Source: an uncultured Candidatus Peribacteria bacterium (GTDB taxonomy: Bacteria > Patescibacteriota > Gracilibacteria > UBA4473). Taken from it: a stretch of 47,642 bases of DNA. Positions 3,551 through 40,424 of the stretch are shown piece after piece. The stretch's first letter is position 1. Each line of letters opens with the position of its first letter. The translations under genes were made by a program, and so were the position numbers. The DNA is taken from NCBI GenBank assembly GCA_964451885.1, contig CAYVJW010000001.1, positions 1 to 47,642 of the forward strand, read 5' to 3'. A model generated the notes under the pieces. That model saw only the letters and a list, made by a program, of their open reading frames with translations. It was not told the DNA's origin and made no database searches.

Positions 3551-3573
3551 GGGAAGAAAATTTTAATCATTAT

Positions 3574-4410: not shown

Positions 4411-4420
4411 GGAGAGAATA

Positions 4421-11643: not shown

Positions 11644-11784
11644 GCTTTTTTTATTCCTTATGGTATTTAAAAATACTTGAATATTGTGAATTGTTGGAAT
11701 TTTTCTTGAATTTTCAATTTCTAATTTCTAATTTTCAAACATAATATAAAAAATAGAGGCTTTAGGAATTAAAAGTTATTGGAC

Positions 11785-16372: not shown

Positions 16373-16401
16373 GGATATCAAAAGTAAGTTTTTTATTACT
16401 C

Positions 16402-17262
16402 TCACACTCTAATTACTATGTCAACTTTCTCATCATGATCTTCTCTTGGGGTCTCTTTTACAATAGAAAATTTTGGCAGTACTATTACTTTTAGTGTTTT
16501 AATGCTTGATAAAACCCGGTCGTAAAACCCCATTCCCTGTCCCAGTCTGTTATTTTCATTGTCAGCTGCTACTGCAGGAATGAAAGCGATGTTGATTTCA
16601 GAAAGATCATATTTACTTTGAGTATTTGGTTCGGGGATATTAAACTTTCCTGGTTTTAATTTTTCATACGTTGAAGCATAAAACTTCATTTCGTCATTTC
16701 TAATTAATGGGAAATAATATTTCTTTTCCGGAAATGTCTTACATAGTTTTTCTACAAAATTTATTTCGTTATTAATTGGGGCGTAGATAAGTACGTGTGA
16801 GGCAGTTTTAAACTTAGGAAGATGCAATATTTTTTCTATGGCGGTCGTGGCCCATGCTTCTTTTTGTTCCGGTGAGACAGTTTGCCATTTTTTATTTATT
16901 TCTTGGCGGAGAAAGAATTTTCGTGCTCGGAGGATGTCTTTTTCCACTTGTGAGAAAAGCGCATCGGCGTTTTGGAAAGTTTTAGTCGGGCGGTCGAACT
17001 TTAATGTGTCAATCTCCATAATTTCATTATAAATTTGTTTGTCAAAATCCAGGATGTGGACTTCGACGGAAAAGTTGCCTCCAAAAGTTTGTCTTTCTCC
17101 GTAATGAAGTACTGCATTAAAATGCTTTCCTCCCAAAAAAACTTGAACAAAATAAACACCGTGTTTAAGGTTGGCACGTCCAATAATTTTGAGGTTGGCA
17201 GTGGCGATTCCAAACTTTGTTCCTATGGAAACGCCGGGGATTACTTGGCCTGTGAATTTCAT
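16402..17262 (-). CDS. Fusion protein: riboflavin kinase domain (N-terminal) + 5-formyltetrahydrofolate cyclo-ligase domain (C-terminal)
   Basis: The N-terminal roughly 115 aa reads GQVIPGVSIGTKFGIATANL...HGVYFVQV...HYGERQTFGG..VEVHILDFDKQIYNEIMEI, the RibF C-terminal riboflavin kinase pattern. The C-terminal roughly 170 aa reads VLIYAPINNEINF...KPGKFNIPEP...IAFIPAVAADNENNRLGQGMGFYDR...PREDHDEKVDIVI, the MTHFS pattern. Confidence 0.8.
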   Translation of the reverse strand: MKFTGQVIPGVSIGTKFGIATANLKIIGRANLKHGVYFVQVFLGGKHFNAVLHYGERQTFGGNFSVEVHILDFDKQIYNEIMEIDTLKFDRPTKTFQNADALFSQVEKDILRARKFFLRQEINKKWQTVSPEQKEAWATTAIEKILHLPKFKTASHVLIYAPINNEINFVEKLCKTFPEKKYYFPLIRNDEMKFYASTYEKLKPGKFNIPEPNTQSKYDLSEINIAFIPAVAADNENNRLGQGMGFYDRVLSSIKTLKVIVLPKFSIVKETPREDHDEKVDIVIRV

Positions 17263-24340: not shown

Positions 24341-25564
24341 ATGAAAATTACTTCTGTTCACGCTCGTGAAATTCTTGATTCCCGTGGAAATCCTACGGTT
24401 GAAGTGGAAATGTCTGACGGGGTTCATACTGTCTCTGCGGCGGTTCCTTCCGGTGCTTCGACGGGAGTGCATGAGGCGTTGGAGCTTCGGGACGGGGATA
24501 AGTCCCGGTATAATGGTAAGGGGGTGTTGAAGGCGGTGGGGAATGTAAATGAAGTGATTGCTTCGGAGGTTGTGGGATTAGATCCTGCCGAACAAGAAAG
24601 CCTTGATAAAAAAATGCTGGATTTAGACGGAACAGAAAATAAATCCCGTTTGGGGGCGAATGCTATCCTGGGGGTTTCTTTGGCTGCTGCCAGACTGACG
24701 GCAAAGCAGAAAAATAGGCCTCTTTTTCAGCATATAAATGATCTTTTCGGAGGGAAGGTTAGTTTGCCGCGTCCTATGATGAATATCATCAATGGCGGAG
24801 CACATGCGGATTCGGGTTTGGCGATTCAAGAATTCATGGTCATGCCTCAGTTTGATGATTTTTCAGAAAATCTCAGAGCAGGAGCAGAAATTTTTCAGGC
24901 CTTGAAAAAAATTCTCAAAGGGCGTGGGGAGGCTATCGGTGTGGGGGACGAGGGAGGATTTGCTCCTCATTTGCCGAAAGTGGCGGATGCTTTTGACGTG
25001 ATACTGGAGGCCATTGAGGCAGCGAGTTATAATACGGAAAATGTAAAGTTGGCGATAGATGTGGCGGCTTCGGAGTTTTTTGAAGAGGAAAAATATATGG
25101 TTGATGGAAAAGTTTTTTCTTCTTCTGATTTGGTGGGTTTTTACGGGGATCTCTTGAAAAAATATCCTTTAATATCCATTGAGGATTCGCATTCGGAGGA
25201 TGATTTTGAGGGATTTATTCAGATGCAGAAAAAGTTTGGCGATAAGATTCAGCTGGTGGGGGATGATCTCTTTGTGACGAATAAAAAACGTCTACAGGCA
25301 GGGATTGATGAGGGACAGGCGAATGCGATTTTGATAAAAGTCAATCAGATAGGGTCATTGACAGAGACTTTTGCAACGATGAAGTTGGCGAAGGCCAATG
25401 GTTTTGGGACGGTTATTTCTCATCGTTCTGGGGAAACGGAAGACTGCTTCATAGCTGATCTTGCGGTGGGGACGGATGCGGGGCAGATAAAGACGGGGTC
25501 GCTGAGCCGGTCGGAGCGGATTTGTAAGTATAATCAGTTGCTGAGGATTGGGGAGAGGTTATGA
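24341..25564 (+). CDS. eno: Enolase (phosphopyruvate hydratase)
   Basis: 407 aa. Motifs are [76 protein letters not shown]. Confidence 0.97.
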
Positions 25565-25969
25565 AAAAATCTTCGTAATCCCTGCTGCTAGGATAGCAAT
25601 GAATAAACTAACCATTCCCCATTGCCAGCCAAAAGTTACTTTTACTTTATGACGAGCTTGATATATTTCATCAAGCCGATCTCGTTCTCTATTTTGATTA
25701 TTTTCGACACGTTCAATACTTCTCTCTACAATGTCCAAACGTTTGTCCATTTGATCCAAACGTTTATCCATTTGCTCAAAGCGTCGGTCAATCTGCTCAA
25801 AACGTTGGTCAATCTGCTCAAAACGTTGGTCAATCTGCTCAAAACGTTGGTCAATTTGATTAAAACGCTGGTCAATTTGATTAAAACGCTGGTCAATCTG
25901 ACTAAAGCGTTGGTCGACATCTGCTCGAAAATCTTTTAGTAATTGTAAGATGGTGTCTTCTTTTGTCAT
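25559..25969 (-). CDS. Tail-anchored coiled-coil protein built from perfect heptad repeats (QIDQRFE)n
   Basis: [79 protein letters not shown]... ending in a C-terminal TM segment [20 protein letters not shown] prefer ATG 25969 over TTG 26005. Confidence 0.65.
25745..25912. repeat. 21-bp tandem repeat array (8 units; degenerate units flank it)
   Basis: Three identical units gtcaatctgctcaaaacgttg lie at 25787-25849. Two identical units gtcaatttgattaaaacgctg lie at 25850-25891. Diverged units sit on both sides. The array is in frame and encodes the heptads of the 25559-25969 protein. Confidence 0.9.
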
Positions 25970-26085
25970 TGTGTATATTTTATTATAATTAATTAAGGAT
26001 GTCAAAAATAAAGGAAAAAATAAGACTTTCGTTTGATTTATATATATTTTTATGGTAAAATCAAGAGATTTGATAATTTTAAACC

Positions 26086-26865
26086 ATGAAAAATCACTAT
26101 CGGTTTCGTTTTGAAGGGGGGTGTCGTTTTGTTTTTTTTAGGAGGATTGGGGTAGAGGTAATGAATTCGGAAGTTGATGCAAATAAGGAATGGGCGAAAG
26201 AAATGAAAGATGCGAAAATTTGGGCGAAGGATGCACAGGATGAGTTGGCGGGAGAGATTGAGAGAAATTTGTCGAAAAATAGTGATAATGTTCGGGAGGT
26301 TCAACGTGGCGATACGATGTACACGATTGTTCGAGGGATGAAAGGATTGAAAAGCTTTTCGTGGAGAAAAGATAAAAATATGGAAGTGGAATACAGAGGG
26401 GTTTCTGAAAAACAGCTTAGAAAAAATAAGGCAGAGACCGGTACGGGAAAATTAAATGATGCCGGTCGGATTTATCCGGGGCAATATGTGTGGCTGGAAG
26501 GGGAAAAAGTGATAGTTTCTACTACTCCGCCTGAGGAGAAAATTGCTACCGATGAGAGACTTCCGGAGTATTCGAAGGCGGATTTGGAGATGTACAAAAA
26601 TGTCGAATTTCCTGTTTTGAGCTTTCACGAAGGGATGGAATTGGAGGCTTTTGTGGCCAGAGAATTTTTGGGGGCAAGGCGTGTTGCTCCTAAAGAATTG
26701 AAATATCGGGTGATAGAAAAGAAGGAAGAAAGCGGGCAAACTTCAAGGAAAAGTTTGGGACAGTTGAGAGCTTGTCGACATCTTCCGGTTCATGATGGGG
26801 AAAAAGTTACAGTGAGGCCGGATCCTGTATCAGAGGGAGTGGTGATTATTTGGGAAAAGAAATAA
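26086..26865 (+). CDS. Hypothetical protein with a LysM-like segment, no signal peptide
   Basis: VQRGDTMYTIVRGM...GRIYPGQYVWLEGEKVIV resembles an expanded LysM peptidoglycan-binding motif (GDTl..Ia ... GQ.l.ip). An alternative start is ATG 26161 (MNSEVDANKEW). Confidence 0.5.
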   Translation: MKNHYRFRFEGGCRFVFFRRIGVEVMNSEVDANKEWAKEMKDAKIWAKDAQDELAGEIERNLSKNSDNVREVQRGDTMYTIVRGMKGLKSFSWRKDKNMEVEYRGVSEKQLRKNKAETGTGKLNDAGRIYPGQYVWLEGEKVIVSTTPPEEKIATDERLPEYSKADLEMYKNVEFPVLSFHEGMELEAFVAREFLGARRVAPKELKYRVIEKKEESGQTSRKSLGQLRACRHLPVHDGEKVTVRPDPVSEGVVIIWEKK

Positions 26866-27299
26866 GAGTGAACAAATAGCAAAATTGAGAAGTTTTTATT
26901 GACTTTGTTTTTTTGATAAGTAAAAAGTCTACAACAAGAATATTTTTCCACTCGGGCTGTTGTAGGATATTATTTACAAATACTTGTAGAGATTTTCTTA
27001 TAACATTGCATTGTTAAGTAGTATTCGACATAAAAAAATTCCGTATTTTTTTAGTAATCCGCTTATGGGCTCATCTTTACTTAGTCTTGTTATAAACGAG
27101 GATAAAATTGTACAGAGTCGTCTGCTCTTAATGTGGGCTGTAGGCTTTATTGACATTTTGCTTGACTTTTCTTGGCAAATAATGTAGGTTGAATTTAAGT
27201 AGACAAAAAGTAAAAAAACAAAAAATAAAAAACAAAAAATAAAAAGGAGTGAAGGAGATATTTTCCGGTTACTTTACTTTGTTCTTTTACATATCGTTT

Positions 27300-27402
27300 C
27301 TATTACCCTTCTCGTGTGGGTTTTGACATATATGAGAGCTTTCTTTTTATGAGAATGTTCGAATCATCTGTCGAAGCCCCGTCACACCCGGAAGGGTAAT
27401 AG
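27300..27402 (+). promoter_or_regulatory. 12-bp perfect inverted repeat framing the leader of the GC-rich gene
   Basis: ctattacccttc (27300-27311) and gaagggtaatag (27391-27402) are exact reverse complements. Extra gtgtg/cacac pairing is possible just inside. The structure ends about 37 nt before the ATG at 27440, where composition switches from AT-rich to GC-rich. Confidence 0.45.
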
Positions 27403-27439
27403 TGGAAAGTTTTTTTAACACCAACCAAGGGGAAACAGC

Positions 27440-28963
27440 ATGAGCGAGAGCGTGCAAGACGGCTCTGGTTCCCAGCCGCAAAGCGGGGATCAAGGGGCTT
27501 CCCCCCCTGACGGGGGTGAAGCAATGGATCAACAGGACCAGGACAACAACGGAGGAGGTGAACCCATCGATGTGAAAGTAAACGAACAAGAGGACACCGA
27601 AGGGGATGCTTTCCCCGAGGAAACTGAGGTCGAACCGCAGATGTATGATGACCAACCGCAGATGAATGATCACCCCATTACAAAAGAGGATGCTATGGAC
27701 AACACCAAACCCAACAAACTGGATCAACTCAAACAGGAGGTAGTTGACGAGCAGCGCCTCCGCAGTGATCTTGCCGCCGAGGTGGCGAGTTCCAAACAGG
27801 CCGCTGAGTTGCTTAGTGCGGTGGCGAACAAGTTGAATACGCCGCCTCCGCATGCGCAGGTGGCTGGGGCCATCGACAACGCTGCTACTGCCTTTACCGG
27901 AGCGGCCACGGCCATACAGGAGGCGGCGGTCAAGGTTGCTGAGAGCAATCAGGCGGCCAATTCTGGTGACGGAAGTAACGGCCAGCAGCCGGAGGGTGAC
28001 GGGAAGATTCCTTTGAAGACCATCGTGATTTCGGTGCGGTTGGCCAAGGACACCAAGGGGCTCCACATCAGGTCGATCATTCCTGGCAAGGGGCTGCGTA
28101 GTGGTATCATCAAGAAGCGTAGCACTATGGCGGTGGATGTGAGTGGGAACATCAAGTTCATGACCAACGATGGGACAATTTATCAAGGGCGTATCCGCGA
28201 TGGTCAGGTAGTGACTGGACGGTTCTTGGAAGCCATGGTGACGGAAGTTGTCAATGGTGTTACCTTGACTACCGATCCCATCGAGCATCATGTGAACAAT
28301 CCCTGGGAGGAGGTTGTCACGGCGTTCCCGACTAACACCATCACTCCGGACGATCCGCATGAGGTGGACATCGAGGATGACACCGATGATGTTCCGGGTC
28401 AGGAAAAGACGCCATCTCGCGGTTTCTGGAATAAATCCAACAAATCGGATTCGACCGGCGCCTCTGCTCCGACATCATCGACTCAGGAGCCGAAATCCGG
28501 TGTCTCGCCGTTATGGATTGTGGTGGCTGTGATCGGGACTGCGCTGGCTGGAGGAGGCATGTATACGGCCAATCAACTCGGGATGTTTGGCGCCACAGTG
28601 GCGTCGCAGCAGGCGCAGATTGCCAATTTTAACGGGTTCCTGAGCGGCCAAAACCAATCGCTTCTTGGCCAGATTGGGGAGCTTGAGGCTCAGCTTGACG
28701 CGGCCCAGCACAAGGTGAATAACGCGGAAGCGCAGGTTCAGGTGTCCCGCAATCAGGTGACCCAGTTGAATAAGAAGTTGACCAAGACCAGCACGGCCAA
28801 TTTCGATCGCATAAACCGCAAGTTGCAGAACGCCCAGAAGCGCTATGCGGATGCGAGGGCGGCCGAAAAGCGGGCCATTGCGGACCTGACTGCTCTTGAG
28901 AAAACCCTGAAAGAGGCGGAGAAGCATGCGAGCAACGCCAAGGGTCGATTGGGAGTCATGTGA
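27440..28963 (+). CDS. Compositionally foreign (GC-rich) bitopic membrane protein: acidic disordered N-terminus, central beta-rich domain, one TM, C-terminal coiled coil
   Basis: 507 aa. A GGGGA ribosome-binding site lies 6 nt upstream. The TM segment is PLWIVVAVIGTALAGGGMY (about 28502-28565). The C-terminal heptad-rich region reads LGQIGELEAQLDAAQHKVNNAEAQVQVSRNQVTQLNKKL... Codon choice (GCC, GTG, CTG, CAG) is unlike neighbouring genes. I recognise no family. Confidence 0.7.
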   Translation: MSESVQDGSGSQPQSGDQGASPPDGGEAMDQQDQDNNGGGEPIDVKVNEQEDTEGDAFPEETEVEPQMYDDQPQMNDHPITKEDAMDNTKPNKLDQLKQEVVDEQRLRSDLAAEVASSKQAAELLSAVANKLNTPPPHAQVAGAIDNAATAFTGAATAIQEAAVKVAESNQAANSGDGSNGQQPEGDGKIPLKTIVISVRLAKDTKGLHIRSIIPGKGLRSGIIKKRSTMAVDVSGNIKFMTNDGTIYQGRIRDGQVVTGRFLEAMVTEVVNGVTLTTDPIEHHVNNPWEEVVTAFPTNTITPDDPHEVDIEDDTDDVPGQEKTPSRGFWNKSNKSDSTGASAPTSSTQEPKSGVSPLWIVVAVIGTALAGGGMYTANQLGMFGATVASQQAQIANFNGFLSGQNQSLLGQIGELEAQLDAAQHKVNNAEAQVQVSRNQVTQLNKKLTKTSTANFDRINRKLQNAQKRYADARAAEKRAIADLTALEKTLKEAEKHASNAKGRLGVM

Positions 28964-29166
28964 AGTGAATGATGTTCTCCTCAAACTTTCCGTCAAGGGA
29001 ATTCGTCCTTGACAATAAGTATGTGTTCCCCCGGCTTGCCGGGGGGGCGCATCCTGCCCCCTTAAATCCTTCCGGGTGAAAAAGGAGGAAGGGAAATGTT
29101 GATCATCATTGATCAGAAAACATCTTCCCTTTCTCTTCAACAAATAAAAATTCAACAAACAGAACT

Positions 29167-29226
29167 TAGTTTTTAGTTGTTAGTTTTTAGTAATTTTATT
29201 TTTCTAAAGACTAGTAACTAAAAACT
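29167..29226 (+). promoter_or_regulatory. Direct + inverted repeat cluster upstream of the 1192-aa gene (operator-like)
   Basis: ttagtttttagt occurs twice in tandem (29167-29178 and 29181-29192). An inverted partner ctagtaactaaaaact lies at 29211-29226, making an 11 bp + 3 bp stem with 29168-29183. The cluster ends about 33 nt upstream of ATG 29259. Confidence 0.4.
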
Positions 29227-29258
29227 TATTTTCTTCCAAGCTCTAACAACTACTCCCA

Positions 29259-32200
29259 ATGTCTCTTGAACAAACCACCTCTCCGACCTTAGACCAGGCT
29301 GTAACTTTACACGAAGTTGCGGCGGCTTTTGCGTATGGGGAAGGGGCGGAGGCGAGACAAGTACTCAATCCCTCACGGCCTGATGATTTGGTGTTGCTTA
29401 AGAGGCGGAGTGTGCAGAATCTATTGGAAAATGCTAAATTACCTGTTTCGGGGCTTTTATATGCAGAGGTAGATACCGCGCTTCCTCCTGACATTGAAAG
29501 ATCTCTTCGAAAACTGAAAAATGCGCCCAATGAGGCGGAACGAGTGGCGGTAAAAATGATAGAGGATATTCAGAAAAGCCTGGTGAATATTTCTTCAAAA
29601 TTAAAGGGACTTGAACGGGCTTCTTACGATACAAGACGTCGGGAATTTAGCAGGTTAAATAGTTTATTTTTGGATTATATCCCCAGAGCGTTTGTGCATT
29701 CTAAATTTCCTTTGGGGTACCTTCCTGCTCAAAGTCCGCGTAGATCAGAACTTAATAACTCTCTTCAAGATTTGGTGTCATTGGGACAGAATGTAGAAAG
29801 AACATATGGTTTAGTTGTCTCCTTCAATCAAGAGGCAACACTAGCCAATCTTCGTGGTAGTATTGAGCGAGTCAGTGCTGTAGTGTCGATAGATCCTCCA
29901 TCCTTATTAGACACTCCGGAAGTGGGTTGGCAGGAAAAAGGTTGGCAAATAGCTGATAGAATTATTCCGCAAAAGTTAATCCAATGGGGGAGGCAGTGGA
30001 CAAGTGGGAACGAAGAGGGCGGGGACAGAGAAAATGTTGATAGGATAGATTATGAAGCACTTGGGTTTGATTCCTCTCAGTACGAATATCTGAGAAGGCT
30101 GGAGAGATGGGAAGAAAAAACAGGCGCTTACTTGAAAAAAACAGAAGATTATTTATTGGCTCGTCATCCTTCCTGGCAAAAAGATTTTCCAGATATATGG
30201 GATGCGTTTAACCGGCTTTATACAGTTCAAAGGCAGATAGAAGTGGAAATCAGAACTTTGCGTCGTGCTTCTGAAAGCAATTCTTCCGGGGCGGTTTTGA
30301 AAGGCCTGGAAGAAAATTCAATTGCTCCATCATCCGATAAAGTAGAACAGGTTACTGATTATTTACTAAACCAGCTTCCTGCTTCTATTCGTTCAAAACC
30401 GGTTTGTTCAGCGGCTTTGGGTTTTTTAAATGAACATTTTGGAGTGGACGTCGGGTTTAGCATGAGGGCAACTTCCGCGTGGGCGCTTGCGGGGCATATG
30501 ACTAAGCTTCATTCTACCAATAGAGCTAAATTTAAAAAGGTTGATGAGGGGGAGTATCAGCTTTCTTCTGTGTCGTTGAGGAAGCAGGATGTCCGGCCGA
30601 TTTATATGGCATTGGGGGGAATAAATGAAGGGGATGAAAGAAATGGAGCGAAAAAATATATTACTTTTGTTTATGAGGCTTCTGAGTTTAAGGATAATGC
30701 GGCTCGGGCTTTTGCTAAGAGTCCGGATTCTGTCCGGCCAAATACGCATGTGATGGAGGTGTTTGGGCGGAAAAAGTTTTTGGTTCGTGTTGATTCGCCA
30801 GTAAGATTGAGAGATTTTTTGAAAAAACAGTTTGTTCCCCGAGATTACATAGGAGATACACGTAAACCTGCATCGCACGTGGATTCAGATGCTTTTTTAA
30901 TTGAACTTGTTAAGGTTCTTAATTTAAAAATAAATGGCATGTCTGTGTCTATGGATTTGAATAGGCAATTTGAGGGGGAAGTTGAGTGGGAAGATTTTAT
31001 GGGAATGGATTTTATTCATGTGAGAGATCCTTTGAATAAAAAGGCGGAAATTCCAAAAATAAGGTTATTGCCGCTTTCAACAATGCTCCTGGATAAGAGA
31101 TTCGTTCCCGTGGACGTATTGGAAACACAGTCAACGGCTATAGAAAGCATTCCAACCGATCAACTCATTCAAAAATTATCAGAAGCTCAGTGGGGATACT
31201 TAAGAGGAAGATCCGTCAAGGTTAGCTATCTGCAAGTGGCTTTGGAGAGGATTGGATTGTCGCCAGGTTCGTTTGACGGGTATTATGCTACGAATGGGGT
31301 ATTGAATAAACTAAATAAAACGAGAGGTGCGGAAAGAATCACGTATCTTGATAATCTTGGGATGGGAAAAGGAGGAGATACGGCCAGGGCCGTGATGGCT
31401 TACCAAAGGATTAGGGGGTTTTCGGAGGATGGACTGGCTGGGGAACATACGGTGGCGGGTGTAGTTGAAGATTTGAGAATAGGCAACAGAATTTCCATTC
31501 CTCGGAGAGTAGAACTGGCAGAGCCGCTATTGACCTATCAGGAAGAACCATTGAAGATAGTGGATTTTGCGCAGGAATTAAATAGAAAGCAAGCTTTGAG
31601 GTTTATAGAAAGAAAATTACATAAACTTGGTGTATCGAGGATAAGAAATGCGGCTCAAGTGGAAGGATTGAGAGATAATATATATGAAGCAGTAGAGGGA
31701 TCTGGTATAAAAATTACTCCGGGGAATATGTCTTATATTGTTTCCGTGCAATACCTGGAATCTTCTTTTGGTTTGGGACAGCGGTTTGGAGAAGGAATTT
31801 ATAATAATTTTATAAACGGTCTTTCCTGGTACGAGAAATATACCGTTGAATCGGCTTTGGATGTGGTAAAAGGAATAGAAATAGCCGGTTTTAGCGGTGA
31901 AGAGAGAGTTGATTCTTTTTTGGCCTGTAAGACAAAAAAAGATTTGTATCGGTGGGCACAGGATACAGTGAGTATGCTGCAAAATCCTGAACTGCAAAGC
32001 GAGATTGAGAATAAGTTTTTCTTTAATAGTGCCTTGAAGATAGTGTTGGATTTTTTTGAAATAGAATATGAAGGCGATGATTATTATGAAGCCGCGGTTG
32101 CAAGACTGGCAGAAGAACCTTCTTCCTTGGGAATTTTTCAGGTAAATGTGGATTCTTTTATAAGGATTTTGGAAAGTCGGAAGGAAGAATGGAAAAACGA

Positions 32201-32837
32201 TACTCGATGGAGAGCTCTTTTGCGGGGAGAAAGAATAGATAGGGATTTGCTTGCTAGGTCTTTATTGGAAGATTCGGATCGTTTAGATATTTTGTCAAAG
32301 GTGGATATAGAGGCGCTTGTCATTCGGTATTATTTGAAGCCTATAATGGAAAGATATGATTTTAATGGAGATGGATCCGTGGGATTGAACGAAGTTGGGC
32401 TTATTACTGCGGATTTTCATGCGGGCAGTTTTTCTCCCCGAAACGCAGCTGTGCAACAAGCTTTAAGTCGAGTGCTTGGAACAAGTCTGATTTTGGATGG
32501 AGATTTGTCTTTTTATGATAAAGAAGGAAACCCGGTTTTTTGGGAGGGGGCGGAAACGGTACAAAGTCTTATGAAATTTTCCGAAAGTTTGACATCAGAG
32601 CAAAGAAAAGGACTATCCTCTCGAGAATTTGTAGAAAGTTTTGTTGTTTTGTCTAATTCTCCCGATCTGGAGAGACACCAGCTTTATAGTGTTTTGATGC
32701 AGGCGGGGGAAGATCGATGGATCATTCCTGTGGGAGCCAGGATAAAAAGTGGGTTTGCAACAGTGAGTGGGATTGAATCTGTCAGTGCGAAGGCTTATGT
32801 CCAAAGAGCTCAGGAGGTGTATTTGGCAGGACATTGA
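29259..32837 (+). CDS. Large multidomain protein: shared novel N-terminal domain + peptidoglycan-binding (PG_binding_1-like) repeat + EF-hand Ca loop, no signal peptide
   Basis: 1192 aa. The N-terminal roughly 335 aa are paralogous to the N-terminus of 32862-34400. VSYLQVALERIGLSPGSFDG...GDTARAVMAYQRIRGFSEDGLAGEHTVAGV (about 31221-31475) fits the PG_binding_1 pattern with an insertion. DFNGDGSVGLNE (32358-32393) is a canonical EF-hand loop. EEPSSLGIFQVN is only weakly reminiscent of lytic-transglycosylase ES..GLMQ motifs. Confidence 0.75.
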   Translation: MSLEQTTSPTLDQAVTLHEVAAAFAYGEGAEARQVLNPSRPDDLVLLKRRSVQNLLENAKLPVSGLLYAEVDTALPPDIERSLRKLKNAPNEAERVAVKMIEDIQKSLVNISSKLKGLERASYDTRRREFSRLNSLFLDYIPRAFVHSKFPLGYLPAQSPRRSELNNSLQDLVSLGQNVERTYGLVVSFNQEATLANLRGSIERVSAVVSIDPPSLLDTPEVGWQEKGWQIADRIIPQKLIQWGRQWTSGNEEGGDRENVDRIDYEALGFDSSQYEYLRRLERWEEKTGAYLKKTEDYLLARHPSWQKDFPDIWDAFNRLYTVQRQIEVEIRTLRRASESNSSGAVLKGLEENSIAPSSDKVEQVTDYLLNQLPASIRSKPVCSAALGFLNEHFGVDVGFSMRATSAWALAGHMTKLHSTNRAKFKKVDEGEYQLSSVSLRKQDVRPIYMALGGINEGDERNGAKKYITFVYEASEFKDNAARAFAKSPDSVRPNTHVMEVFGRKKFLVRVDSPVRLRDFLKKQFVPRDYIGDTRKPASHVDSDAFLIELVKVLNLKINGMSVSMDLNRQFEGEVEWEDFMGMDFIHVRDPLNKKAEIPKIRLLPLSTMLLDKRFVPVDVLETQSTAIESIPTDQLIQKLSEAQWGYLRGRSVKVSYLQVALERIGLSPGSFDGYYATNGVLNKLNKTRGAERITYLDNLGMGKGGDTARAVMAYQRIRGFSEDGLAGEHTVAGVVEDLRIGNRISIPRRVELAEPLLTYQEEPLKIVDFAQELNRKQALRFIERKLHKLGVSRIRNAAQVEGLRDNIYEAVEGSGIKITPGNMSYIVSVQYLESSFGLGQRFGEGIYNNFINGLSWYEKYTVESALDVVKGIEIAGFSGEERVDSFLACKTKKDLYRWAQDTVSMLQNPELQSEIENKFFFNSALKIVLDFFEIEYEGDDYYEAAVARLAEEPSSLGIFQVNVDSFIRILESRKEEWKNDTRWRALLRGERIDRDLLARSLLEDSDRLDILSKVDIEALVIRYYLKPIMERYDFNGDGSVGLNEVGLITADFHAGSFSPRNAAVQQALSRVLGTSLILDGDLSFYDKEGNPVFWEGAETVQSLMKFSESLTSEQRKGLSSREFVESFVVLSNSPDLERHQLYSVLMQAGEDRWIIPVGARIKSGFATVSGIESVSAKAYVQRAQEVYLAGH

Positions 32838-32861
32838 ATTCAATTTTTAATTTCTAATTAA

Positions 32862-34400
32862 ATGACTATTGAGCAGAGTGGTGTGTCGACGTTAGATCAG
32901 GCTGTTACGATGCAGGAGGTAGCAGATGCTTTTGCTTATAGTGATAGAGTGGAAAAGAGGCAAGTGTTAGATCCTTCAAATCCTGATGATGTGGTGTTAC
33001 TGCAGAGATGGAATGTGAGTGAACTATTGGATTCATTTAGGATGCCTGTTTCAGGGTCCGTGTATGCTTCAGCACAAGGGGAGATGATGTCTGACGCAAA
33101 TGTTGCACTTTTCTCAAATATGGAAAGGGATATTCAAAAACTGAAAAGATTGATATTTCGTCAAGCGAAAGAAAAATCTGAAAAAGCGATTGAGGACATT
33201 CGCGAGAGTATTAATAATATCACTTCAAAACTGAGAGAATTCGAGAGTCGGCCTCATGAAGAAAGAATTCAGGAGTTGGAAAGGCTTCATAGTTTGATGC
33301 GAGAATATATTCCCAGAGCGGAAATGCATTTGGAGGCTTTTTTTGAGGATTTGTCTCCAAAAAGTGATTCCAGAATTATTCTTTCCAAATCGATTCGTGA
33401 ATTAAAAGAACTTGAGCAAAAATTAGGAAAGCATCTTGAATTAGCGCTTCAATTTGATCCAGCCATCACGCTTAGAGATATTCAGAAGAGCATTGATAAG
33501 TCAAAAGACGAACTGACTTTGCGTTCAGGAGAATCCATCGATTATTTGCGTCGAATAAAAGCCTGGGTAGAAAAAGCCAAGGCTTATGAGAAAAAAGCAA
33601 AACTTTATTTAAGAGCTCGTGCTCCCAATTGGAGAAAAGATTTTCCGGAAATTAAAAAAGCGCTTAGGGCGCTTTTTGCGTTTCGTAGAGGGATAGAACG
33701 TAAAATTTCTCGTCCTGGTATTGAATCTGTTCTTTTAAATGGAAGTGTAATTCCGGGAAAATATTTAAGCTCAGCCAGAAAGACAGAACGATCAATTGAC
33801 GGGGAGGAGGGGCATCGCCTCGAAAAAATTTTTCAGCCGGAGTTGGATTTTTTGGCTGGCAAGATGGGGAAGGGGGATTATGTTTTGTTGGCAGATGTTT
33901 CTCAAAAAGAGCAACTGGACGGAGGGCCTTTTCAGCAGCTTTATTGGGTGCGACGGACGGCGGACGGTTTTATTTTTGAAAAGCGGTTTATCATGTCAGG
34001 GAGTAAGGTAGAACCCGGAAAAAATGTAACAAGTTCATTTAGTACTCCTTATGGACTTCATAAAATTGCTTCTATAGTAAAAGGTGATTTTGCTTCCGTT
34101 ATTAAGGGAAGAAGAGTCCAAAGAAGGAAGGTAGAAAATATTTCAACCGGAGATGCGAGAATTTTAACTACGGCAGCTCTGTATTTGAAAGGCCTGGAAA
34201 GGGGGATAAATGATTTGTCTAACCCTCGGGGGATTGCTATCCATGGAACTCCTTTTGAAAGGAGATTAGGGAGGCCGGCTTCTCACGGTTGTATTTGGCT
34301 TTCGAATGCGGATATTTTAAATCTTTTGGAGATGATAAATCGGAATCCAGAAAAGGGGTGGGCGTATATAACAGATCAGAAGAATCATCGCAATTTGTAA
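32862..34400 (+). CDS. Shared novel N-terminal domain fused to a YkuD-type L,D-transpeptidase catalytic domain, no signal peptide
   Basis: 512 aa. The N-terminus MTIEQSGVSTLDQAVTMQEVADAFAY...YLRRIKAWVEKAKAYEKKAKLYLRARAPNWRKDFPEI parallels the 1192-aa protein. The C-terminus carries TPYGLHKI...GIAIHGTPFERRLGRPASHGCIWLSNADILNL, the YkuD H-G/SHGC motif. The catalytic Cys codon is at 34290-34292. Confidence 0.8.
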   Translation: MTIEQSGVSTLDQAVTMQEVADAFAYSDRVEKRQVLDPSNPDDVVLLQRWNVSELLDSFRMPVSGSVYASAQGEMMSDANVALFSNMERDIQKLKRLIFRQAKEKSEKAIEDIRESINNITSKLREFESRPHEERIQELERLHSLMREYIPRAEMHLEAFFEDLSPKSDSRIILSKSIRELKELEQKLGKHLELALQFDPAITLRDIQKSIDKSKDELTLRSGESIDYLRRIKAWVEKAKAYEKKAKLYLRARAPNWRKDFPEIKKALRALFAFRRGIERKISRPGIESVLLNGSVIPGKYLSSARKTERSIDGEEGHRLEKIFQPELDFLAGKMGKGDYVLLADVSQKEQLDGGPFQQLYWVRRTADGFIFEKRFIMSGSKVEPGKNVTSSFSTPYGLHKIASIVKGDFASVIKGRRVQRRKVENISTGDARILTTAALYLKGLERGINDLSNPRGIAIHGTPFERRLGRPASHGCIWLSNADILNLLEMINRNPEKGWAYITDQKNHRNL

Positions 34401-34627
34401 ACAATAACCGACAATGTTTTTATTGGTGAGAATGAAATATGCTTGACTTTCCATAGAGACAGTGCTACAAAGTAATTAGTTTTTTTCTTCTCAATAAAAC
34501 TCGGCTAAAAATTCGAAGTTTTTTGAGAAAAAAATCATTATTTGCTCTTTTTCATATCGATAATTTACCATCATTTTTTTCGTATTATCATTGGTCTAAG
34601 AGGCCAGAACTCAAGAGGAGGATAGGT

Positions 34628-35131
34628 ATGCTCAAAAAACCGTGGTTTTGGATAATCATCCTTTCGTTGATGCTAGGGGCGGAAGCTTTCTGGATCTTCA
34701 ATGGAAGGGGAGAAGCGGCGGCTGGTCATGGATCTGACCCGCCTTTTGTTAACCAACAGGTTGACGCGGACTGGTTAGATGACCTTGATAAATTTCGGCA
34801 GTCAGTTGCTGATGAGGCATTGGCGCGGCGCGACGGGGATAAAAATCTTAGTCGCCAAGTCAAGAAGCTTCGCACTCAGATGGAGGTTGTTGCTCGGAAA
34901 CATGAATCGTTGACTCGCCGGGTCGATGAGAGTGATCGGAATTGGGCTCGTCTGGCAGAAGGGCGTCATGAAGCCGAAACAATGGCAAAACAGTATTGGG
35001 AACATGATGCAAACAATTCTCTTTGCGGCTCTTTCTACTCCATGGGCCATTGTCCGGAAGTTCTTCCATGGAAGGAGTACCTCGAAAGGGCGCTTCGGGA
35101 AGCAGGTGTATTCTTCTTTCCCGAGAGATGA
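34628..35131 (+). CDS. Hypothetical N-terminally anchored membrane protein, elevated GC
   Basis: The start moves to ATG 34628, preceded by a strong AGGAGG ribosome-binding site (gaggaggataggtATG). The TM segment is WFWIIILSLMLGAEAFWIF. The remainder is charged and helical (LRTQMEVVARKHESLTRRVDESDRNWARLAEGRHEAE). The track ORF begins at 34523. Confidence 0.6.
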   Translation: MLKKPWFWIIILSLMLGAEAFWIFNGRGEAAAGHGSDPPFVNQQVDADWLDDLDKFRQSVADEALARRDGDKNLSRQVKKLRTQMEVVARKHESLTRRVDESDRNWARLAEGRHEAETMAKQYWEHDANNSLCGSFYSMGHCPEVLPWKEYLERALREAGVFFFPER

Positions 35132-35225
35132 TGTGGTGGGATCGGTATAGAGAGAGCTGGGGGGTGGCATAGATGTCGCCCTCCTCTTTTTTGCTTTTTT
35201 TCTTGTAAGATGGTAGAATATAAAG

Positions 35226-36275
35226 ATGGAAAATAAGGATCAATCATCGCTTCCTAAACAACCGGGTGAAAAACCTGTGTCGGGGGAGGGGAAAACTCCT
35301 TCGGGAGAGGCTTTATTGCCGCCTAAACTGCCTCAAGTAGCCGTAGTAGAGGGGGAGGGGATAAAAGTGGGAAGTGAAGAAGAACAATTAAAAATTAAAA
35401 ATGAAAATAATGAAAGGAATGAAGAAAATGAGAAGAATGAAGAGGTAGAATCTGAAGATGAGTTGATTGTTGAAGAAGAGGAGGATTTTTTCTGGGTGGT
35501 TCAGCGTGTTGTGTGGGGGATTGTAAAAACAGTTTTTATATTGGGGCTTATCGGATTTTTTGTTTGGATCATATGGGGACCGGATAAAAAATCGTTTTCG
35601 GAACTCGAAAAAGCAAAATCGGTTGTTTTGGAGGTTTCTAAAGAAAAGGGGGTTTCGATTCAGAAGGAGAAATTGCTGCCAAGGAAATATATTTCACCTG
35701 CCGACCGCTTGATTGAGCTGGAAGAAATGTTTGATCCGGCAAATCAAAAAAGTTCGATTATCAGTTCTGTGCTGTGGTTGGAAAAAGCTGGCGCTTTTTT
35801 GAATAAATCTGCTTTTGAACTGATACCGAGTTCTGTTCCTCAAATTCGGAAGCAAAGAGTGGAATTTGTTCTCAAAGAAATTCGGCAGTTGATCGAGTAT
35901 TCAGAGGTTATTCAAGGGAGGGTAATGCAGGAAATTAACGCGTTTTCACAGCGATCTAAACAGGCCAATGAAGATTCTGTTTTAAATGAAACCGCTTTTT
36001 TTGAGGCACTTCGGCACTTTGAAGGAGTGGAGGCGGAAATTTTTCTTGCCCAGAAAGTCGATGCTGAAAAACTGGTGATGGCAAATTCGACTTTTGCCAG
36101 CGGGAGGAAAATTTTACTGCAGAATATTCAGCGTTATGATAAGCGGCTTCGTAGTTTATACGAAAATGTTGAGGCTAATAAAGAGGCGTTGATCCATGAT
36201 GTGCGTGTGGTTGATTTTCCGGAGAGTACGTTGGAGATTATTTTGAGCCCGAGGGAGTGGAGGGAGGGGCAGTGA
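35226..36275 (+). CDS. Hypothetical bitopic membrane protein with an acidic N-terminal region
   Basis: 349 aa. The low-complexity N-terminus is rich in E/N/K (EEQLKIKNENNERNEENEKNEEVESEDELIVEEEED). One TM segment is VVWGIVKTVFILGLIGFFVWIIWG. The C-terminal domain is helical. I recognise no family. Confidence 0.6.
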   Translation: MENKDQSSLPKQPGEKPVSGEGKTPSGEALLPPKLPQVAVVEGEGIKVGSEEEQLKIKNENNERNEENEKNEEVESEDELIVEEEEDFFWVVQRVVWGIVKTVFILGLIGFFVWIIWGPDKKSFSELEKAKSVVLEVSKEKGVSIQKEKLLPRKYISPADRLIELEEMFDPANQKSSIISSVLWLEKAGAFLNKSAFELIPSSVPQIRKQRVEFVLKEIRQLIEYSEVIQGRVMQEINAFSQRSKQANEDSVLNETAFFEALRHFEGVEAEIFLAQKVDAEKLVMANSTFASGRKILLQNIQRYDKRLRSLYENVEANKEALIHDVRVVDFPESTLEIILSPREWREGQ

Positions 36276-36285
36276 GTTATGAAAT

Positions 36286-38628
36286 TTACTCTTGAAAAAT
36301 AAAACTGATATTCTTCGCTACTTTCTTTCTCATTTTTGGAGATAATTGAATTTTTCGTTGTGAAACAATGATTTTTTGTTTTTTTTCAGGCGGGGAGGAC
36401 GGCTTTTCAACTGCTTCATATTGAGGATATGGAATAAAAGCCGCTTCTTTTCGCTTTTTTTCTTCTATTTTTTGTAAAAATTCAGGGTTAACTCGATCAA
36501 TAAAATGTTGAAAAAATTGAGGAGAGGTATTATTTTTTGTTTCGAGGGTAAGGTCAAGAGCTCTTGCTTTCGGCACTTTTTTTATCAGTATTTTTTCCAG
36601 CCAGGATTTTAGCGGGCGGTCAATGTGCGTGGAGGCTCCTCCGGAGGCGTAGGTTTCTATGGTTATTTCTTCTGAATCAGTTTGCCCTGAAAAATCAGTG
36701 ACGGTAAGGGTGAGGGTGTATCTGTCGGGATTGTTTAGTTTTTGATTCGGCGGGTTCATTACATTCGAAAAAACTTTGTTGTTAAGCTTCCATTCAAATA
36801 GTTGTAAGTCATAGTTTCCGTTGGGGTCGGTGGAACCTTCTCCCGTTACATTTAGTGAAAAGGGGATAGCGCCTGATATTTTTCCTGATCCTTGAATTTT
36901 GATTACGGCTGTGGGGGGGGAATTTACGGTTTCGTTTATTTTTCCTAGGGATCCGTTGAAGTGTCGAAAAAAATCGGAAGGCATATTGTGGTCTTCGTAA
37001 TTGACAAATCTGGCGATGGATTCGTTTTTGATGATGCCTTCGATATCAATACATGGCTCGGTCCAATTATCGGCTTCTCTGTTTTTTTCTACTCGCGAAG
37101 CTTCTGTGGCGCTGAGTTCTGTCTTTTTCCAACAAATAAAATCTTCTGTTGTTTCAAAGCTTGTTCCGGAAAATAAAATCACTTCCACGGTTCCCGATCC
37201 GCTGGAAATGCCTCCTTCTTTGAGGGAATGTATTTCATAAGGAGAAGCGCTGTTTATAATATCGGAAGTTTCCTGGTCAGGTTTGATAACCAAAAAATCT
37301 CCTTCACGTACTCGAAAATCATAATTTATGTTTATCAACGAAGTTCCGTTGTGTTTTATCTCCAGGTATTTTAGGTTTATGGGGTTAGTATTGGCGGATT
37401 TTATGTAAAGTTCGATGAAATCCGGTCCTGTTTCGCTGTCGCGGTTTGGGGAAATTTCGGAAATCAGTAGTTCTATGTCTTCCGGATAGGTAGGCGCATC
37501 AAAATTTTCTTCGCCCTGTGTGTGCCGAAAATTCGAATCTTTGTTGTTTTTGTAAATGAGAGGAAAGAGAGAGTTTTTTTCTTTATGTGCATTCCATATT
37601 TCCGACCACTCTACTGCCAAAGAAGTTCCTGATTTAGCTTTTTCATAATTTATTTCTGCCTTAGTTTCATTGTTTTCGTTCAAAATTTGTATTGTTCCGT
37701 TATCGTTTGGGAGAGAGATGGGGGATTTGGTCCAGAAAAATCGGGCTGTTTCTTGCGGCAAAAAAATTAACCGGTTTTCGTCCAGGATAACGGTTGTTCC
37801 CAATCCGGATATTTCTTCCGAAATCACAGTTCCTGATTCGGTCAGCTCTACTTCTCGCCCTGCCAAATTTACGGCTCCTGAAGCAAGAATTAGATCATTT
37901 TTTGAGTCAAGGAATTTTATTGTCGAACTTGTGCCGTTAGATATCTGCCAATCAGAAATGTCTATCGCTTCATTTCCTTCGATTTCAAATTCAAACCATT
38001 CCTCCATATTCTCAATTTTATGCGGCTGTATTTCCGTGATCCGAACCGTTGCATCTCCGGATTTGAATTGAATGTCTTCTTCTTTCTCTTCTTGCTCGCT
38101 TATCTCCTCGCCCGCTTGTCCGCTATTCTCCCCTGGTGTTCCATGTTCGGTTGATAATTGCCAACTTTCAAGAAGAGAGGGATCGGCTCTGGCAGAAATC
38201 CGTTCCAAGCTTTTCCCGCTTTCGCATGAGGGATATGTGAATTGCTCGCCGAGTTCTATATCATCGTTTTCATCTCTAAGGGCGATTTCTTCTCCGGAAT
38301 TTTTCAGGCTACTCCAAGATGAATCAAAAACCTGCCCGGAAAAGTTAGGAAAAATGGTTAAAAATTCTTCTTCTTTATCGACTATTATGGCTCTTACGTT
38401 TGGTAGCAGGGTATTTTCATCATCGGACTGATTAATTGAATGGTTTGTGCCTTGTTCAAGAAACTTCCATTTAGTCAGATCAACCGGTTCTTCCGAAACA
38501 TTCCACACTTCGATCCATTCGGCATTTCCGGGTTCGCAGGCGCCGATTTCTGTGATGATGATTTTTGGAGATGCGAAAATAAGTTGAGGATAAAGAAAAA
38601 GCCACAGGCTAAATATTGTCCGTTTCAT
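36286..38628 (-). CDS. Secreted lamin-tail-domain (LTD) repeat protein with a PKD-like domain
   Basis: Signal peptide MKRTIFSLWLFLYPQLIFA. At least three LTD-like modules are present: IIITEIGACEPGNAEWIEVWNVSEEPVDLTKWKF; VRITEIQPHKIENMEEWFEFEIEGNEAIDISDWQI; LLISEISPNRDSETGPDFIELYIK...INLKYLEI. The PKD-like segment is PFSLNVTGEGSTDPNGNYDLQLFEWKL...YTLTLTVTDFSGQTDSEEITIE. Alternative starts are at 38634 and 38649. Confidence 0.75.
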   Translation of the reverse strand: MKRTIFSLWLFLYPQLIFASPKIIITEIGACEPGNAEWIEVWNVSEEPVDLTKWKFLEQGTNHSINQSDDENTLLPNVRAIIVDKEEEFLTIFPNFSGQVFDSSWSSLKNSGEEIALRDENDDIELGEQFTYPSCESGKSLERISARADPSLLESWQLSTEHGTPGENSGQAGEEISEQEEKEEDIQFKSGDATVRITEIQPHKIENMEEWFEFEIEGNEAIDISDWQISNGTSSTIKFLDSKNDLILASGAVNLAGREVELTESGTVISEEISGLGTTVILDENRLIFLPQETARFFWTKSPISLPNDNGTIQILNENNETKAEINYEKAKSGTSLAVEWSEIWNAHKEKNSLFPLIYKNNKDSNFRHTQGEENFDAPTYPEDIELLISEISPNRDSETGPDFIELYIKSANTNPINLKYLEIKHNGTSLININYDFRVREGDFLVIKPDQETSDIINSASPYEIHSLKEGGISSGSGTVEVILFSGTSFETTEDFICWKKTELSATEASRVEKNREADNWTEPCIDIEGIIKNESIARFVNYEDHNMPSDFFRHFNGSLGKINETVNSPPTAVIKIQGSGKISGAIPFSLNVTGEGSTDPNGNYDLQLFEWKLNNKVFSNVMNPPNQKLNNPDRYTLTLTVTDFSGQTDSEEITIETYASGGASTHIDRPLKSWLEKILIKKVPKARALDLTLETKNNTSPQFFQHFIDRVNPEFLQKIEEKKRKEAAFIPYPQYEAVEKPSSPPEKKQKIIVSQRKIQLSPKMRKKVAKNISFIFQE

Positions 38629-38889
38629 ATTCATTTGTATTTTTACCAAAATTACTTATAAAATCTAGTAAATGCAAAATACGAAAAACTTTGGTTTTGA
38701 TTTCCAAAAAAACCAAAAAATAAGCCAAATCGACCATCAAAAATTGGATAAAGAACTGGAGCATTTTTTCGGCATGCAAAGTTTCAGAACTTCCAGTCGT
38801 TTTGCAATTACAATGGAGGAATGATGATTGGATATTGGTTCGCTGCGGTGAATGTACTTTGAACAATTAGCCATTTAACCATTTAATTT

Positions 38890-39668: not shown

Positions 39669-40424
39669 ATGACCTGGAACCTCGATCCCATCGCTTTCTC
39701 CCTCTTTGGTCTCGATGTTCGATGGTACGGTTTGTCGTATGTTCTTGGATTTTTTCTTGTTTTGATTATCGGGCATAAAATCATTTTGCGAACGGGATTG
39801 AAAGTGTCTAAATCAGATTTTGAGAATCTTGTTTTCGGTTTGTTTTTTATTGGAATTGTAGGGGGGAGGTTGGGAGAGTTTTTGTTTTATGCGCCGCAAA
39901 CTTTTTTGGAAGATCCTTTGGAGGTTTTCAAGATTTGGCACGGTGGGATGTCTATTCACGGGGGGATTTTGGCGGCCATTTTGTTTGGGGTTTGGTGGGC
40001 GAAAAAGCATAAGATTTCGTTTTATTGTCTGGCCGACAGTTTAGTTATTCCTCTGGCGATTGCTTTGGGGGTTGGCCGGATTGCGAATTTTATTAATGGA
40101 GAACTCGTTGGAATTCCGACAGATCAGAGCTGGGGGGTGATTTTTCCGCATGTGGACGATCTGTTTCGGCATCCGTCGCAGCTTTATGAAGCGGGGAAGA
40201 ATTTTATTTTGGCGGGGTTGTTAATGTGGCTGTTGATTAAAGATTTTTGGAAAAAGCCGGGATTTTTATTTTCGGTTTTTCTTATAGGGTACGGGGTTTT
40301 GAGATTTATTATTGAGTTTTGTCGGGAGCCGGACGGGATGATTTGGGTTTTGTCGACGGGACAGGTTTTGTGTTTGGGGATGGTTGTTTTCGGCTTGACA
40401 ATTCGAAAATTTTCATTTACATGA
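39669..40424 (+). CDS. lgt: Prolipoprotein diacylglyceryl transferase, canonical paralogue 2
   Basis: 251 aa. Motifs are DVRWYGLSYVLGF, IWHGGMSIHGGILAAILFG, GRIANFINGELVGIPTDQSWGVIFP, RHPSQLYEA. Confidence 0.92.
   Translation: MTWNLDPIAFSLFGLDVRWYGLSYVLGFFLVLIIGHKIILRTGLKVSKSDFENLVFGLFFIGIVGGRLGEFLFYAPQTFLEDPLEVFKIWHGGMSIHGGILAAILFGVWWAKKHKISFYCLADSLVIPLAIALGVGRIANFINGELVGIPTDQSWGVIFPHVDDLFRHPSQLYEAGKNFILAGLLMWLLIKDFWKKPGFLFSVFLIGYGVLRFIIEFCREPDGMIWVLSTGQVLCLGMVVFGLTIRKFSFT

Follow-up and report, generated by a model that had tools for sequence, protein, structure and literature searches.

The window analysed here is a stretch of 47,642 nucleotides (nt) from an uncultured Candidatus Peribacteria bacterium (contig CAYVJW010000001.1), and our subject within it is a run of genes at 26086-36275, in particular two tandem paralogues that we call P3 (29259-32837, plus strand, 1192 amino acids, aa) and P4 (32862-34400, plus strand, 512 aa). 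Six plus-strand open reading frames (ORFs) make up the run, on which our own ORF list and the JGI gene calls agree; a preliminary description of the sequence had counted seven consecutive plus-strand genes. The run is bounded by the enolase gene (24341-25564) and by the minus-strand gene of a lamin-tail-domain (LTD) protein (36286-38649). Besides P3 and P4 it contains P1 (26086-26865, 259 aa, or 234 aa from the start at 26161), P2 (27440-28963, 507 aa, inside a cassette at 27380-29110), P5 (34523 or 34628 to 35131, 202 or 167 aa, the last gene of the block) and P6 (35226-36275, 349 aa, a bitopic membrane protein), all on the plus strand. One more gene, Pm1 (25559-26005, 148 aa), lies on the minus strand between enolase and P1, within the variable block delimited below, and went unmentioned in the preliminary description. 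P3 and P4 are separated by 25 nt with no intervening ORF, P5 comes next, and a strong terminator-like hairpin of the intrinsic type (35159-35184, plus strand; 11 pairs, 7 of them G-C, and a T-tract) ends the unit and closes the block before P6.

P3 and P4 have in common an N-terminal domain of ~300-340 aa. It covers residues 1-344 of P3 (29259-30290, plus strand) and, by alignment with P3, residues 1-293 of P4 (32862-33740, plus strand); the first ~70 aa are well conserved and long helices follow. BLASTP aligns the two proteins with 40% identity over 213 aa (E 7e-40) and 50% over 56 aa, and phmmer relates the two domains at E ~1e-50. The comparison of the paralogues gives a synonymous divergence (dS) of ~1.3, with a ratio of nonsynonymous to synonymous divergence (dN/dS) of 0.25 in residues 1-70 and 0.44-0.56 beyond. 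With a dS of this size and a dN/dS that is lowest over residues 1-70, the duplication appears to be old and the constraint centred on the extreme N-terminus.

The locus was found on contigs from four samples, in the same arrangement each time, and these contigs are 99.9-100% identical, so that dN/dS at the population level is not computable. Every contig found with the locus thus belongs to one near-identical, near-clonal population. The 90%-identity protein clusters of the locus have 1-2 members each. One cluster that unites P2 with a 53-aa representative is a clustering artefact, the two sequences being unrelated.

We searched for further copies of the N-terminal domain (the N-domain hereafter) in several ways. 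A hidden Markov model (HMM) made from the P3/P4 alignment, searched exhaustively against 1.84 billion 50%-identity representatives, returned P3, a truncated P4 and one spurious tandem-repeat protein. With P3 as the query, a word-index search of 5.8 billion clusters gave P3 itself only; the same kind of search with the C-terminal 553 aa of P3 and with P2 gave self or nothing. One viral-contig scan and two metagenome-contig scans, made with the N-domain or with P4, were empty; these scans have low power and did not recover the source contig either. Against Pfam at E <= 10, the N-domains of P3 and P4 gave sub-threshold coiled-coil-type noise only and no recognised toxin-trafficking family. AlphaFold2 (AF2) models of P3 and P4, each built from a two-row alignment, predict helices at ~77-209 in the N-domain of P3, with a local confidence score (pLDDT) of roughly 60-80, and at 78-282 in that of P4, with a pLDDT of about 70-80 and a dip near residue 220. 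Sequence searches of the PDB with P3, with its middle region and with its C-terminal region gave no meaningful match, and the search with P4 gave sub-threshold YkuD/L,D-transpeptidase matches and noise only (best E 0.061).

Beyond the N-domain, P4 carries a predicted YkuD catalytic domain at residues 375-493 (33984-34340, plus strand), which scores 37.5 bits against PF03734 (cut-off 23.4) at E 4.3e-9. Its catalytic motif is intact, H461-GTPFERRLGRPA-S474-H-G-C477, and fits H-x(13-17)-[ST]-H-G-C. The preliminary description of P4 as a YkuD fusion sharing its N-terminal domain with P3 is therefore borne out. P4 shares both the catalytic domain and the His...Ser-His-Gly-Cys motif with the YkuD L,D-transpeptidases such as Bacillus subtilis YkuD and Escherichia coli LdtA-E and YcbB. 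After Gly-Cys-Ile it has a Trp, in contrast to the Arg or Asn that is usual in the family. The YkuD family often pairs the catalytic domain with LysM or PG_binding_1 in one protein; here PG_binding_1 is found in the paralogue P3. The classical members are exported or membrane-anchored, whereas P4 is leaderless and has an orphan helical N-domain of ~290 aa. The best NCBIfam match of P4 is the ElsL model NF040925, with 40.8 bits and E 1.9e-10, far under the cut-off of 270.

P3 has a different set of modules after the N-domain, and the earlier picture of a 1192-aa protein with a peptidoglycan-binding module and an EF-hand loop stands. A PG_binding_1-like domain is placed at residues ~648-740 (31200-31478, plus strand), where it is divided by an insert of ~25 aa. 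The match to PG_binding_1 (PF01471; 24.8 bits, E 2.5e-5) covers residues 705-732, which correspond to positions 27-54 of the 57 in the profile; the first half of the domain is seen by eye at residues ~648-675, ahead of the insert. A putative calcium-binding loop of the EF-hand type, DFNGDGSVGLNEV, lies at residues 1034-1046 (32358-32396, plus strand). It fits a PS00018-type pattern when searched as a regular expression, as do 0.5% of shuffled P3 sequences.

The C-terminus of P3 matches DUF1615, the YaiW family (PF07759), at residues 1051-1147 (32409-32699, plus strand), with E 1.9e-11 and 44-47 bits (cut-off 25) over profile positions 184-270 of 319. Identity to E. coli YaiW is 54%, confined to 39 aa. 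P3 shares the block ADF(H/N)AG...RNAA.Q.A...LDGDL with the surface-exposed YaiW/DUF1615 lipoproteins of Proteobacteria; unlike YaiW, it lacks a lipoprotein signal, has three times the length and belongs to a monoderm-type bacterium of the Candidate Phyla Radiation (CPR). E. coli YaiW, taken as the DUF1615 reference, had no match in the PDB sequence search.

Two further impressions gained by eye from P3 may be recorded. The E. coli YaiW motifs QQES, GGPMQV and ADFNAG resemble the ES, GLMQ and AYNAG motifs of family-1 lytic transglycosylases, and P3 has the counterparts YLESSFG (residue 832), SLGIFQV (956) and ADFHAGS (1051) within 31750-32430. We tried the C-terminus of P3, with DUF1615, as an SLT-like lytic transglycosylase and leave it as speculation only: hhalign was non-significant against the domains of Slt70, MltC, MltD and MltE, giving for these four E. 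coli SLT domains a probability of 0.4% for P3 and 1.8% for YaiW, and the C-terminus of P3 has no Pfam SLT match at E <= 10. The second impression concerns the middle region of P3 (residues ~345-647, 30291-31199, plus strand), where AF2 gives a pLDDT < 50, residues 341-700 have no Pfam match at E <= 10 and residues 361-600 have no PDB sequence match. At ~388-520 (30420-30820) the segments KPVCSAALGFLNEHFG ... THVMEVFGRKKFLVRVDSP have Cys, His and Asp in the order that C39-type papain-like peptidases show, and the distance from His to Asp agrees as well. A C39-like peptidase there found no profile or PDB sequence support and was set aside.

P3 and P4 have neither a Sec or Tat signal nor a transmembrane (TM) helix. 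No hydrophobic segment is found in them, the maximum 19-residue Kyte-Doolittle score being 1.25 for P3 and 0.78 for P4, and both N-termini are acidic. Each ORF starts at the first start codon past the upstream stop, so that there is no upstream extension and no cryptic upstream signal, either of which the preliminary description had named as a refutation. P4 has none of the features by which extracytoplasmic members of the YkuD family are recognised, namely a signal peptide, a lipobox or a TM anchor. Classical signals are present in the neighbouring LTD protein and in P5. The most likely start of P5 is the ATG at 34628, with AGGAGG 7 nt upstream, which gives the 167-aa protein that is also the size of the gene call; from this start P5 has a predicted N-terminal Sec-type signal, MLKKPWFWIIILSLMLGAEA followed by F after the cut. 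P2, P5 and P6 have one TM or signal segment each, with TM helices at ~354-376 in P2 and ~91-116 in P6. The two additional single-TM proteins of the preliminary description thus do have one segment each, but that of P5 is a Sec-type signal and P6 belongs to the backbone, as shown below.

The limits of the variable block differ from those of the gene run. We placed the organism among Peribacteria and other Gracilibacteria-class CPR bacteria, with best enolase identities of 81-77% in a scan of species-representative genomes. In L006, a Peribacteria metagenome-assembled genome with an enolase identity of 77%, the gene order is DHFR, enolase, a P6 homologue (11289-12365; 43% identity, 71 nt past enolase), LTD, LemA and LGT, and no counterpart of Pm1 or of P1 to P5 was found. 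A second P6 homologue lies near enolase in the relative L021 (5141-6373), with a primase gene between. The homologue directly after enolase in L006 indicates that P6 is conserved backbone outside the accessory block, which leaves a variable block at ~25565-35225. By this gene-order comparison the block is accessory relative to L006, the sole relative that keeps the synteny. The accessory island proposed earlier is thus borne out relative to L006, with Pm1 included and P6 excluded.

The block is a mosaic and not one co-inherited module. The P2 cassette (27380-29110) has a GC content of 0.56 and a GC content at third codon positions (GC3) of 0.65, versus 0.34-0.46 in the neighbouring genes and ~40% GC in the genome. 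Its edges are sharp in GC, with AT-rich spacers at the borders, and its tetranucleotide composition correlates with the rest of the window at r = 0.085, versus a background of 0.93 +/- 0.03. It looks like a recent acquisition from a donor of higher GC. P1, P3 and P4 are native-like in tetranucleotide composition (r ~0.9), so that a scan of GC and tetranucleotides picks out the P2 cassette and not an island as a whole. Almost all genes of the window, P3 and P4 included, have an AT-rich start context free of Shine-Dalgarno sites. Strong AGGAGG-type sites are found at P5 (ATG 34628), at the alternative start of P1 (26161) and at a 26-codon ORF (29096-29176), and P2 has a weaker Shine-Dalgarno site, which hints at a different origin of the pieces with the strong sites. 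It is the foreign P2, the native P1, P3 and P4 and the differing start contexts that make the block a mosaic, and the native composition and start context of P3 and P4 mark these two as established and not as junk of recent arrival. Past the stop codon of P2 lies a G+C-rich hairpin (~29037-29057). An AT-rich 23-bp hairpin, an inverted repeat at 29168-29226 (plus strand), lies ~30-90 nt upstream of the P3 start; it folds at -24.6 kcal/mol (z = -6.0, with 0 of 200 shuffles folding as well) and may be the terminator of the P2 cassette or a 5' regulatory element for P3, P4 and P5.

P3 and P4 could be leaderless enzymes, specific to this lineage, that remodel the wall and arrive there by a route other than Sec, and this is the reading we tentatively favour, at a confidence somewhat short of probable. 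The core would be a lineage-restricted tandem pair of paralogues, P3 and P4, followed by the exported P5, in a Peribacteria-like bacterium. Both enzymes would be made in the cytoplasm and would come to the peptidoglycan through a membrane lesion or lysis, in the manner of leaderless autolysins and phage endolysins, or through another export step. The shared N-domain might be a common handle for release or export, or a regulatory or docking pro-domain; the exported P5 might modulate P3 and P4 outside the membrane; and the target could be either the own wall or that of a host. An action of P3 outside the cytoplasm is favoured by its wall-binding module and by a domain that is known elsewhere from an exported lipoprotein; P4 would act there too, since paralogues presumably share their location. 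The reading draws support from the age of the duplication and the purifying selection on it, which is most marked in residues 1-70, and from the matches to PG_binding_1, DUF1615 and YkuD, all above the Pfam cut-offs. Also in its favour are the intact YkuD motif, the lack of signals in P3 and P4 next to neighbours that have them, the compact P3-P4-P5 unit with its terminator, the native composition and start context of P3 and P4, the recurrence of the arrangement in four samples and the absence of the block from L006.

Several results weigh against this reading. The mean AF2 pLDDT is 36 for P3 and 51 for P4, with the N-domain helices (~80-280) alone moderately confident, up to 70-80; in Foldseek the P4 model found no PDB structure at E <= 0.001 and was discarded, so the structural check suggested earlier ended with poor models. 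The HMM, word-index, viral and metagenome scans found no N-domain homologue beyond P3 and P4, which makes any role of the N-domain pure inference. PG_binding_1 passes its cut-off of 23 bits only marginally, at 24.8, and the DUF1615 match spans just ~27% of its profile. No export machinery or recognisable holin is seen in the 47-kb window. The block has a single syntenic relative, with which an insertion here and a deletion there are indistinguishable. A leaderless YkuD enzyme can also be truly cytoplasmic, as ElsL is (PMC8649774), and the ElsL model is the best NCBIfam match of P4.

What appears to be new from the sequence comparisons is an orphan N-domain on modular leaderless peptidoglycan enzymes, the C-terminal modules being of known families. 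If P3 and P4 act on peptidoglycan outside the cytoplasm, they would be leaderless wall enzymes of a second kind, here in an ultra-small bacterium of the monoderm type, and the N-domain would mark the export or release step. This would matter for the question of how CPR bacteria reshape the wall around themselves or break through that of a host. A bolder version takes the N-domain, especially its first ~70 residues, as the recognition handle of an undescribed non-Sec route, maybe onto a host wall, and gives P5 and a partner in the membrane an accessory or immunity role; we think this quite unlikely. The case consists of one paralogue pair in one uncultured population, without comparative or structural support, and we treat it as a modest lead and not as a system.

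Leaderless autolysins and phage endolysins are among the closest known parallels to the wall-remodelling enzymes that we suggest. Such proteins reach the wall via membrane lesions, holins or lysis, and those of the phiKZ gp144 type combine PG_binding_1 with a transglycosylase. P3 and P4 resemble pneumococcal LytA and the phiKZ gp144 type in having wall-binding and wall-acting modules and no export signal. Unlike endolysins, they have no sequence relation to phages and no recognisable holin, and they are much larger. A 300-aa helical domain at the N-terminus, as in P3 and P4, is not known from endolysins.

A cytoplasmic role, in the metabolism of peptidoglycan fragments, is a serious alternative, although we regard it as unlikely. 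P4 would be an ElsL-like L,D-carboxypeptidase trimming imported tetrapeptides, P3 would bind or process muropeptides, and the N-domain would serve as a scaffold or in oligomerisation. ElsL, the L,D-carboxypeptidase of Acinetobacter baumannii, is like P4 a leaderless YkuD protein, and it was found experimentally to be cytoplasmic (PMC8649774), which weakens the premise of the preliminary description that YkuD domains necessarily act outside the cytoplasm. The NCBIfam match of P4 (E 1.9e-10) fits this role, as does the lack of an export signal in P3 and P4 while the organism uses classical signals elsewhere; the native, housekeeping-like composition of both genes agrees with it too. However, the orthologues of ElsL consist of one domain and have 105-200 aa, most of them coming from Proteobacteria and Verrucomicrobia, and proteins with PG-binding domains were excluded in that study (PMC8649774), whereas P4 has an extra domain and a wall-binding paralogue. 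P4 lies outside the ElsL type of NF040925 in score (40.8 bits against 270) as well as in size (512 aa against 105-200 aa). P3 moreover has PG_binding_1 and the domain otherwise known from an exported surface lipoprotein, and the absence of the block from a close relative would be odd for a core recycling function. No recycling gene of the AmpG, AmpD or Mpl type was seen in the window.

A polymorphic effector system, which the preliminary description proposed, is in our view improbable. In such a system the N-domain would be the loading or export handle, P3 and P4 would target the wall of a competitor or a host, and the membrane neighbours would be the exporter, anchor or immunity components. 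P3 and P4 do recall the polymorphic toxins (T7SS LXG, Rhs/CDI, T6SS MIX/PAAR) in that one leaderless N-module is joined to two differing wall-directed C-termini, with a small exported protein, P5, encoded after P4 in the place expected of an immunity protein. Conservation is highest at the extreme N-terminus, the block is accessory, and cultivated Patescibacteria, a few Gracilibacteria included, grow on host cells to which they are attached or together with them in co-culture. The grammar of polymorphic effectors, however, calls for a single handle that is joined to many different C-termini in different genomes. Here the handle is seen twice only, in one near-clonal population with no polymorphism observed, and it matches no recognised trafficking family (Pfam, E <= 10). 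P4 follows P3 after 25 nt with no immunity gene between them, and PADLOC and PHROGs lend no support; in PADLOC no defence-system match was obtained for P1, P3, P4, P5 or P6.

The proposed partners also speak against an effector system, since they are heterogeneous: P6 is backbone and P2 a separately acquired, foreign single-gene cassette. No secretion ATPase or channel gene is found in the 47 kb. Complete Peribacteria genomes have been described with a type II secretion system, type IV pili, sortase and S-layer genes (PMC4736985); a term search of that genome paper found no mention of flagella (PMC4736985). Type IV secretion system (T4SS) loci of Patescibacteria, defined by VirB4, include VirB1-like hydrolases (PMC12102498), and no VirB4 is present in this window. 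The data give no support for a new secretion or effector system at the P3/P4 locus, nor for one system that unites P3 and P4 with the neighbouring membrane proteins. The preliminary description is thus partly confirmed: the observation is largely real, and the system-level interpretation is not supported. Two cautions follow from the case, that leaderless YkuD proteins need not be extracytoplasmic and that the adjoining membrane-protein genes here are not one co-inherited module.

Pm1 is the gene of the block that matches phage families clearly. It has a 21-nt tandem repeat in 7 copies, encoding QIDQRF(E/N) heptads, and a C-terminal TM helix at 125-148, and its 3' end overlaps that of enolase by 6 nt. 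It matches phrog_6701 at E 4e-23 and XhlA weakly; P1 and P5, like P3 and P4, have no PHROG match. The resemblance of Pm1 to XhlA led us to consider a phage lysis cassette, which we did not keep as the main reading: in phages, homologues of Pm1 adjoin repressor, integrase or helicase genes and not lysis cassettes.

Phage lysins also combine a wall-binding module with another wall-directed one, and virion-associated or endolysin-type lysins are not known to carry signals. P3 and P4 might on these grounds derive from virion-associated or endolysin-type lysins in a phage or mobile-element remnant, with Pm1, P2 or P5 as leftover holin or XhlA-like partners. P3 has wall binding and a further wall-directed module, both proteins are leaderless, the block is accessory, and P2 is foreign in composition with a weak match to a tape-measure PHROG (E 2.7e-4). 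We consider this origin very doubtful, as P3 and P4 have native composition and no PHROG match, tblastn against 50,697 phage records gave nothing for P3 and a generic YkuD match only for P4, the N-domain was absent from the low-power viral-contig scan, the phage homologues of Pm1 lie outside lysis cassettes, and neither an integrase, capsid, terminase or tRNA nor att-like flanking repeats were found in the window by gene calls, repeat scans and tRNA scans. The Rfam and tRNA scans were empty.

For the remaining genes of the run, P1, P2, P5 and P6, searches of Pfam, NCBIfam, PHROGs and PADLOC gave no significant family. P1 is predicted to be soluble and has no signal, and the NCBI/ENA gene calls use its 234-aa form. 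It had been described as LysM-like; the whole protein has no Pfam match to LysM (PF01476), and a sub-fragment of it reaches 12.9 bits (cut-off 20.9) at E 0.11, over 10 residues. Profile searches thus uphold two of the three domain calls, PG_binding_1 and YkuD, and not LysM, and the three signal-less peptidoglycan proteins of the preliminary description reduce to P3 and P4, which are truly leaderless, the peptidoglycan link of P1 being unsupported. P2 was correctly described as a GC-rich TM and coiled-coil protein: its N-terminus is acidic and of low complexity, its middle part is rich in beta structure, and it has a single TM helix and, at the C-terminus, a coiled coil. No homologue of P2 was found. 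The family matches of P2 and P5 are sub-threshold and mostly of the coiled-coil type, for P2 including weak PADLOC matches to JetC (E 7.8e-4) and PbeC (E 1.9e-3). Besides its Sec-type signal peptide, the 167-aa form of P5 has a coiled coil and a pair of Cys residues at the C-terminus. P6 has an acidic N-terminus, one TM helix and a C-terminal domain of ~230 aa, and it is conserved beside enolase or close to it in several Peribacteria and Gracilibacteria genomes.

The rest of the window encodes housekeeping and envelope functions. Its genes are those of PheS/PheT, sigma-70, a Mur ligase, Der, RecF, TGT, two LGT paralogues, PNPase, YchF, dCMP deaminase, DCD, DHFR, enolase, the LTD protein, LemA, a class-A PBP and a GT4 glycosyltransferase. 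Between sigma-70 and PheT, at 2687-5200 on the minus strand, three successive genes (287, 299 and 259 aa) have no Pfam match. The two paralogous genes of LGT, the prolipoprotein diacylglyceryl transferase, lie no more than 25 kb apart, at 15620-16405 on the minus strand and 39669-40424 on the plus strand. The LTD protein (787 aa) is secreted with a classical signal peptide; lamin-tail-domain stretches occur in it three times, along with weak PKD-like matches. L006 has kept it too, and large extracellular proteins of this sort have been described as typical for Peribacteria.

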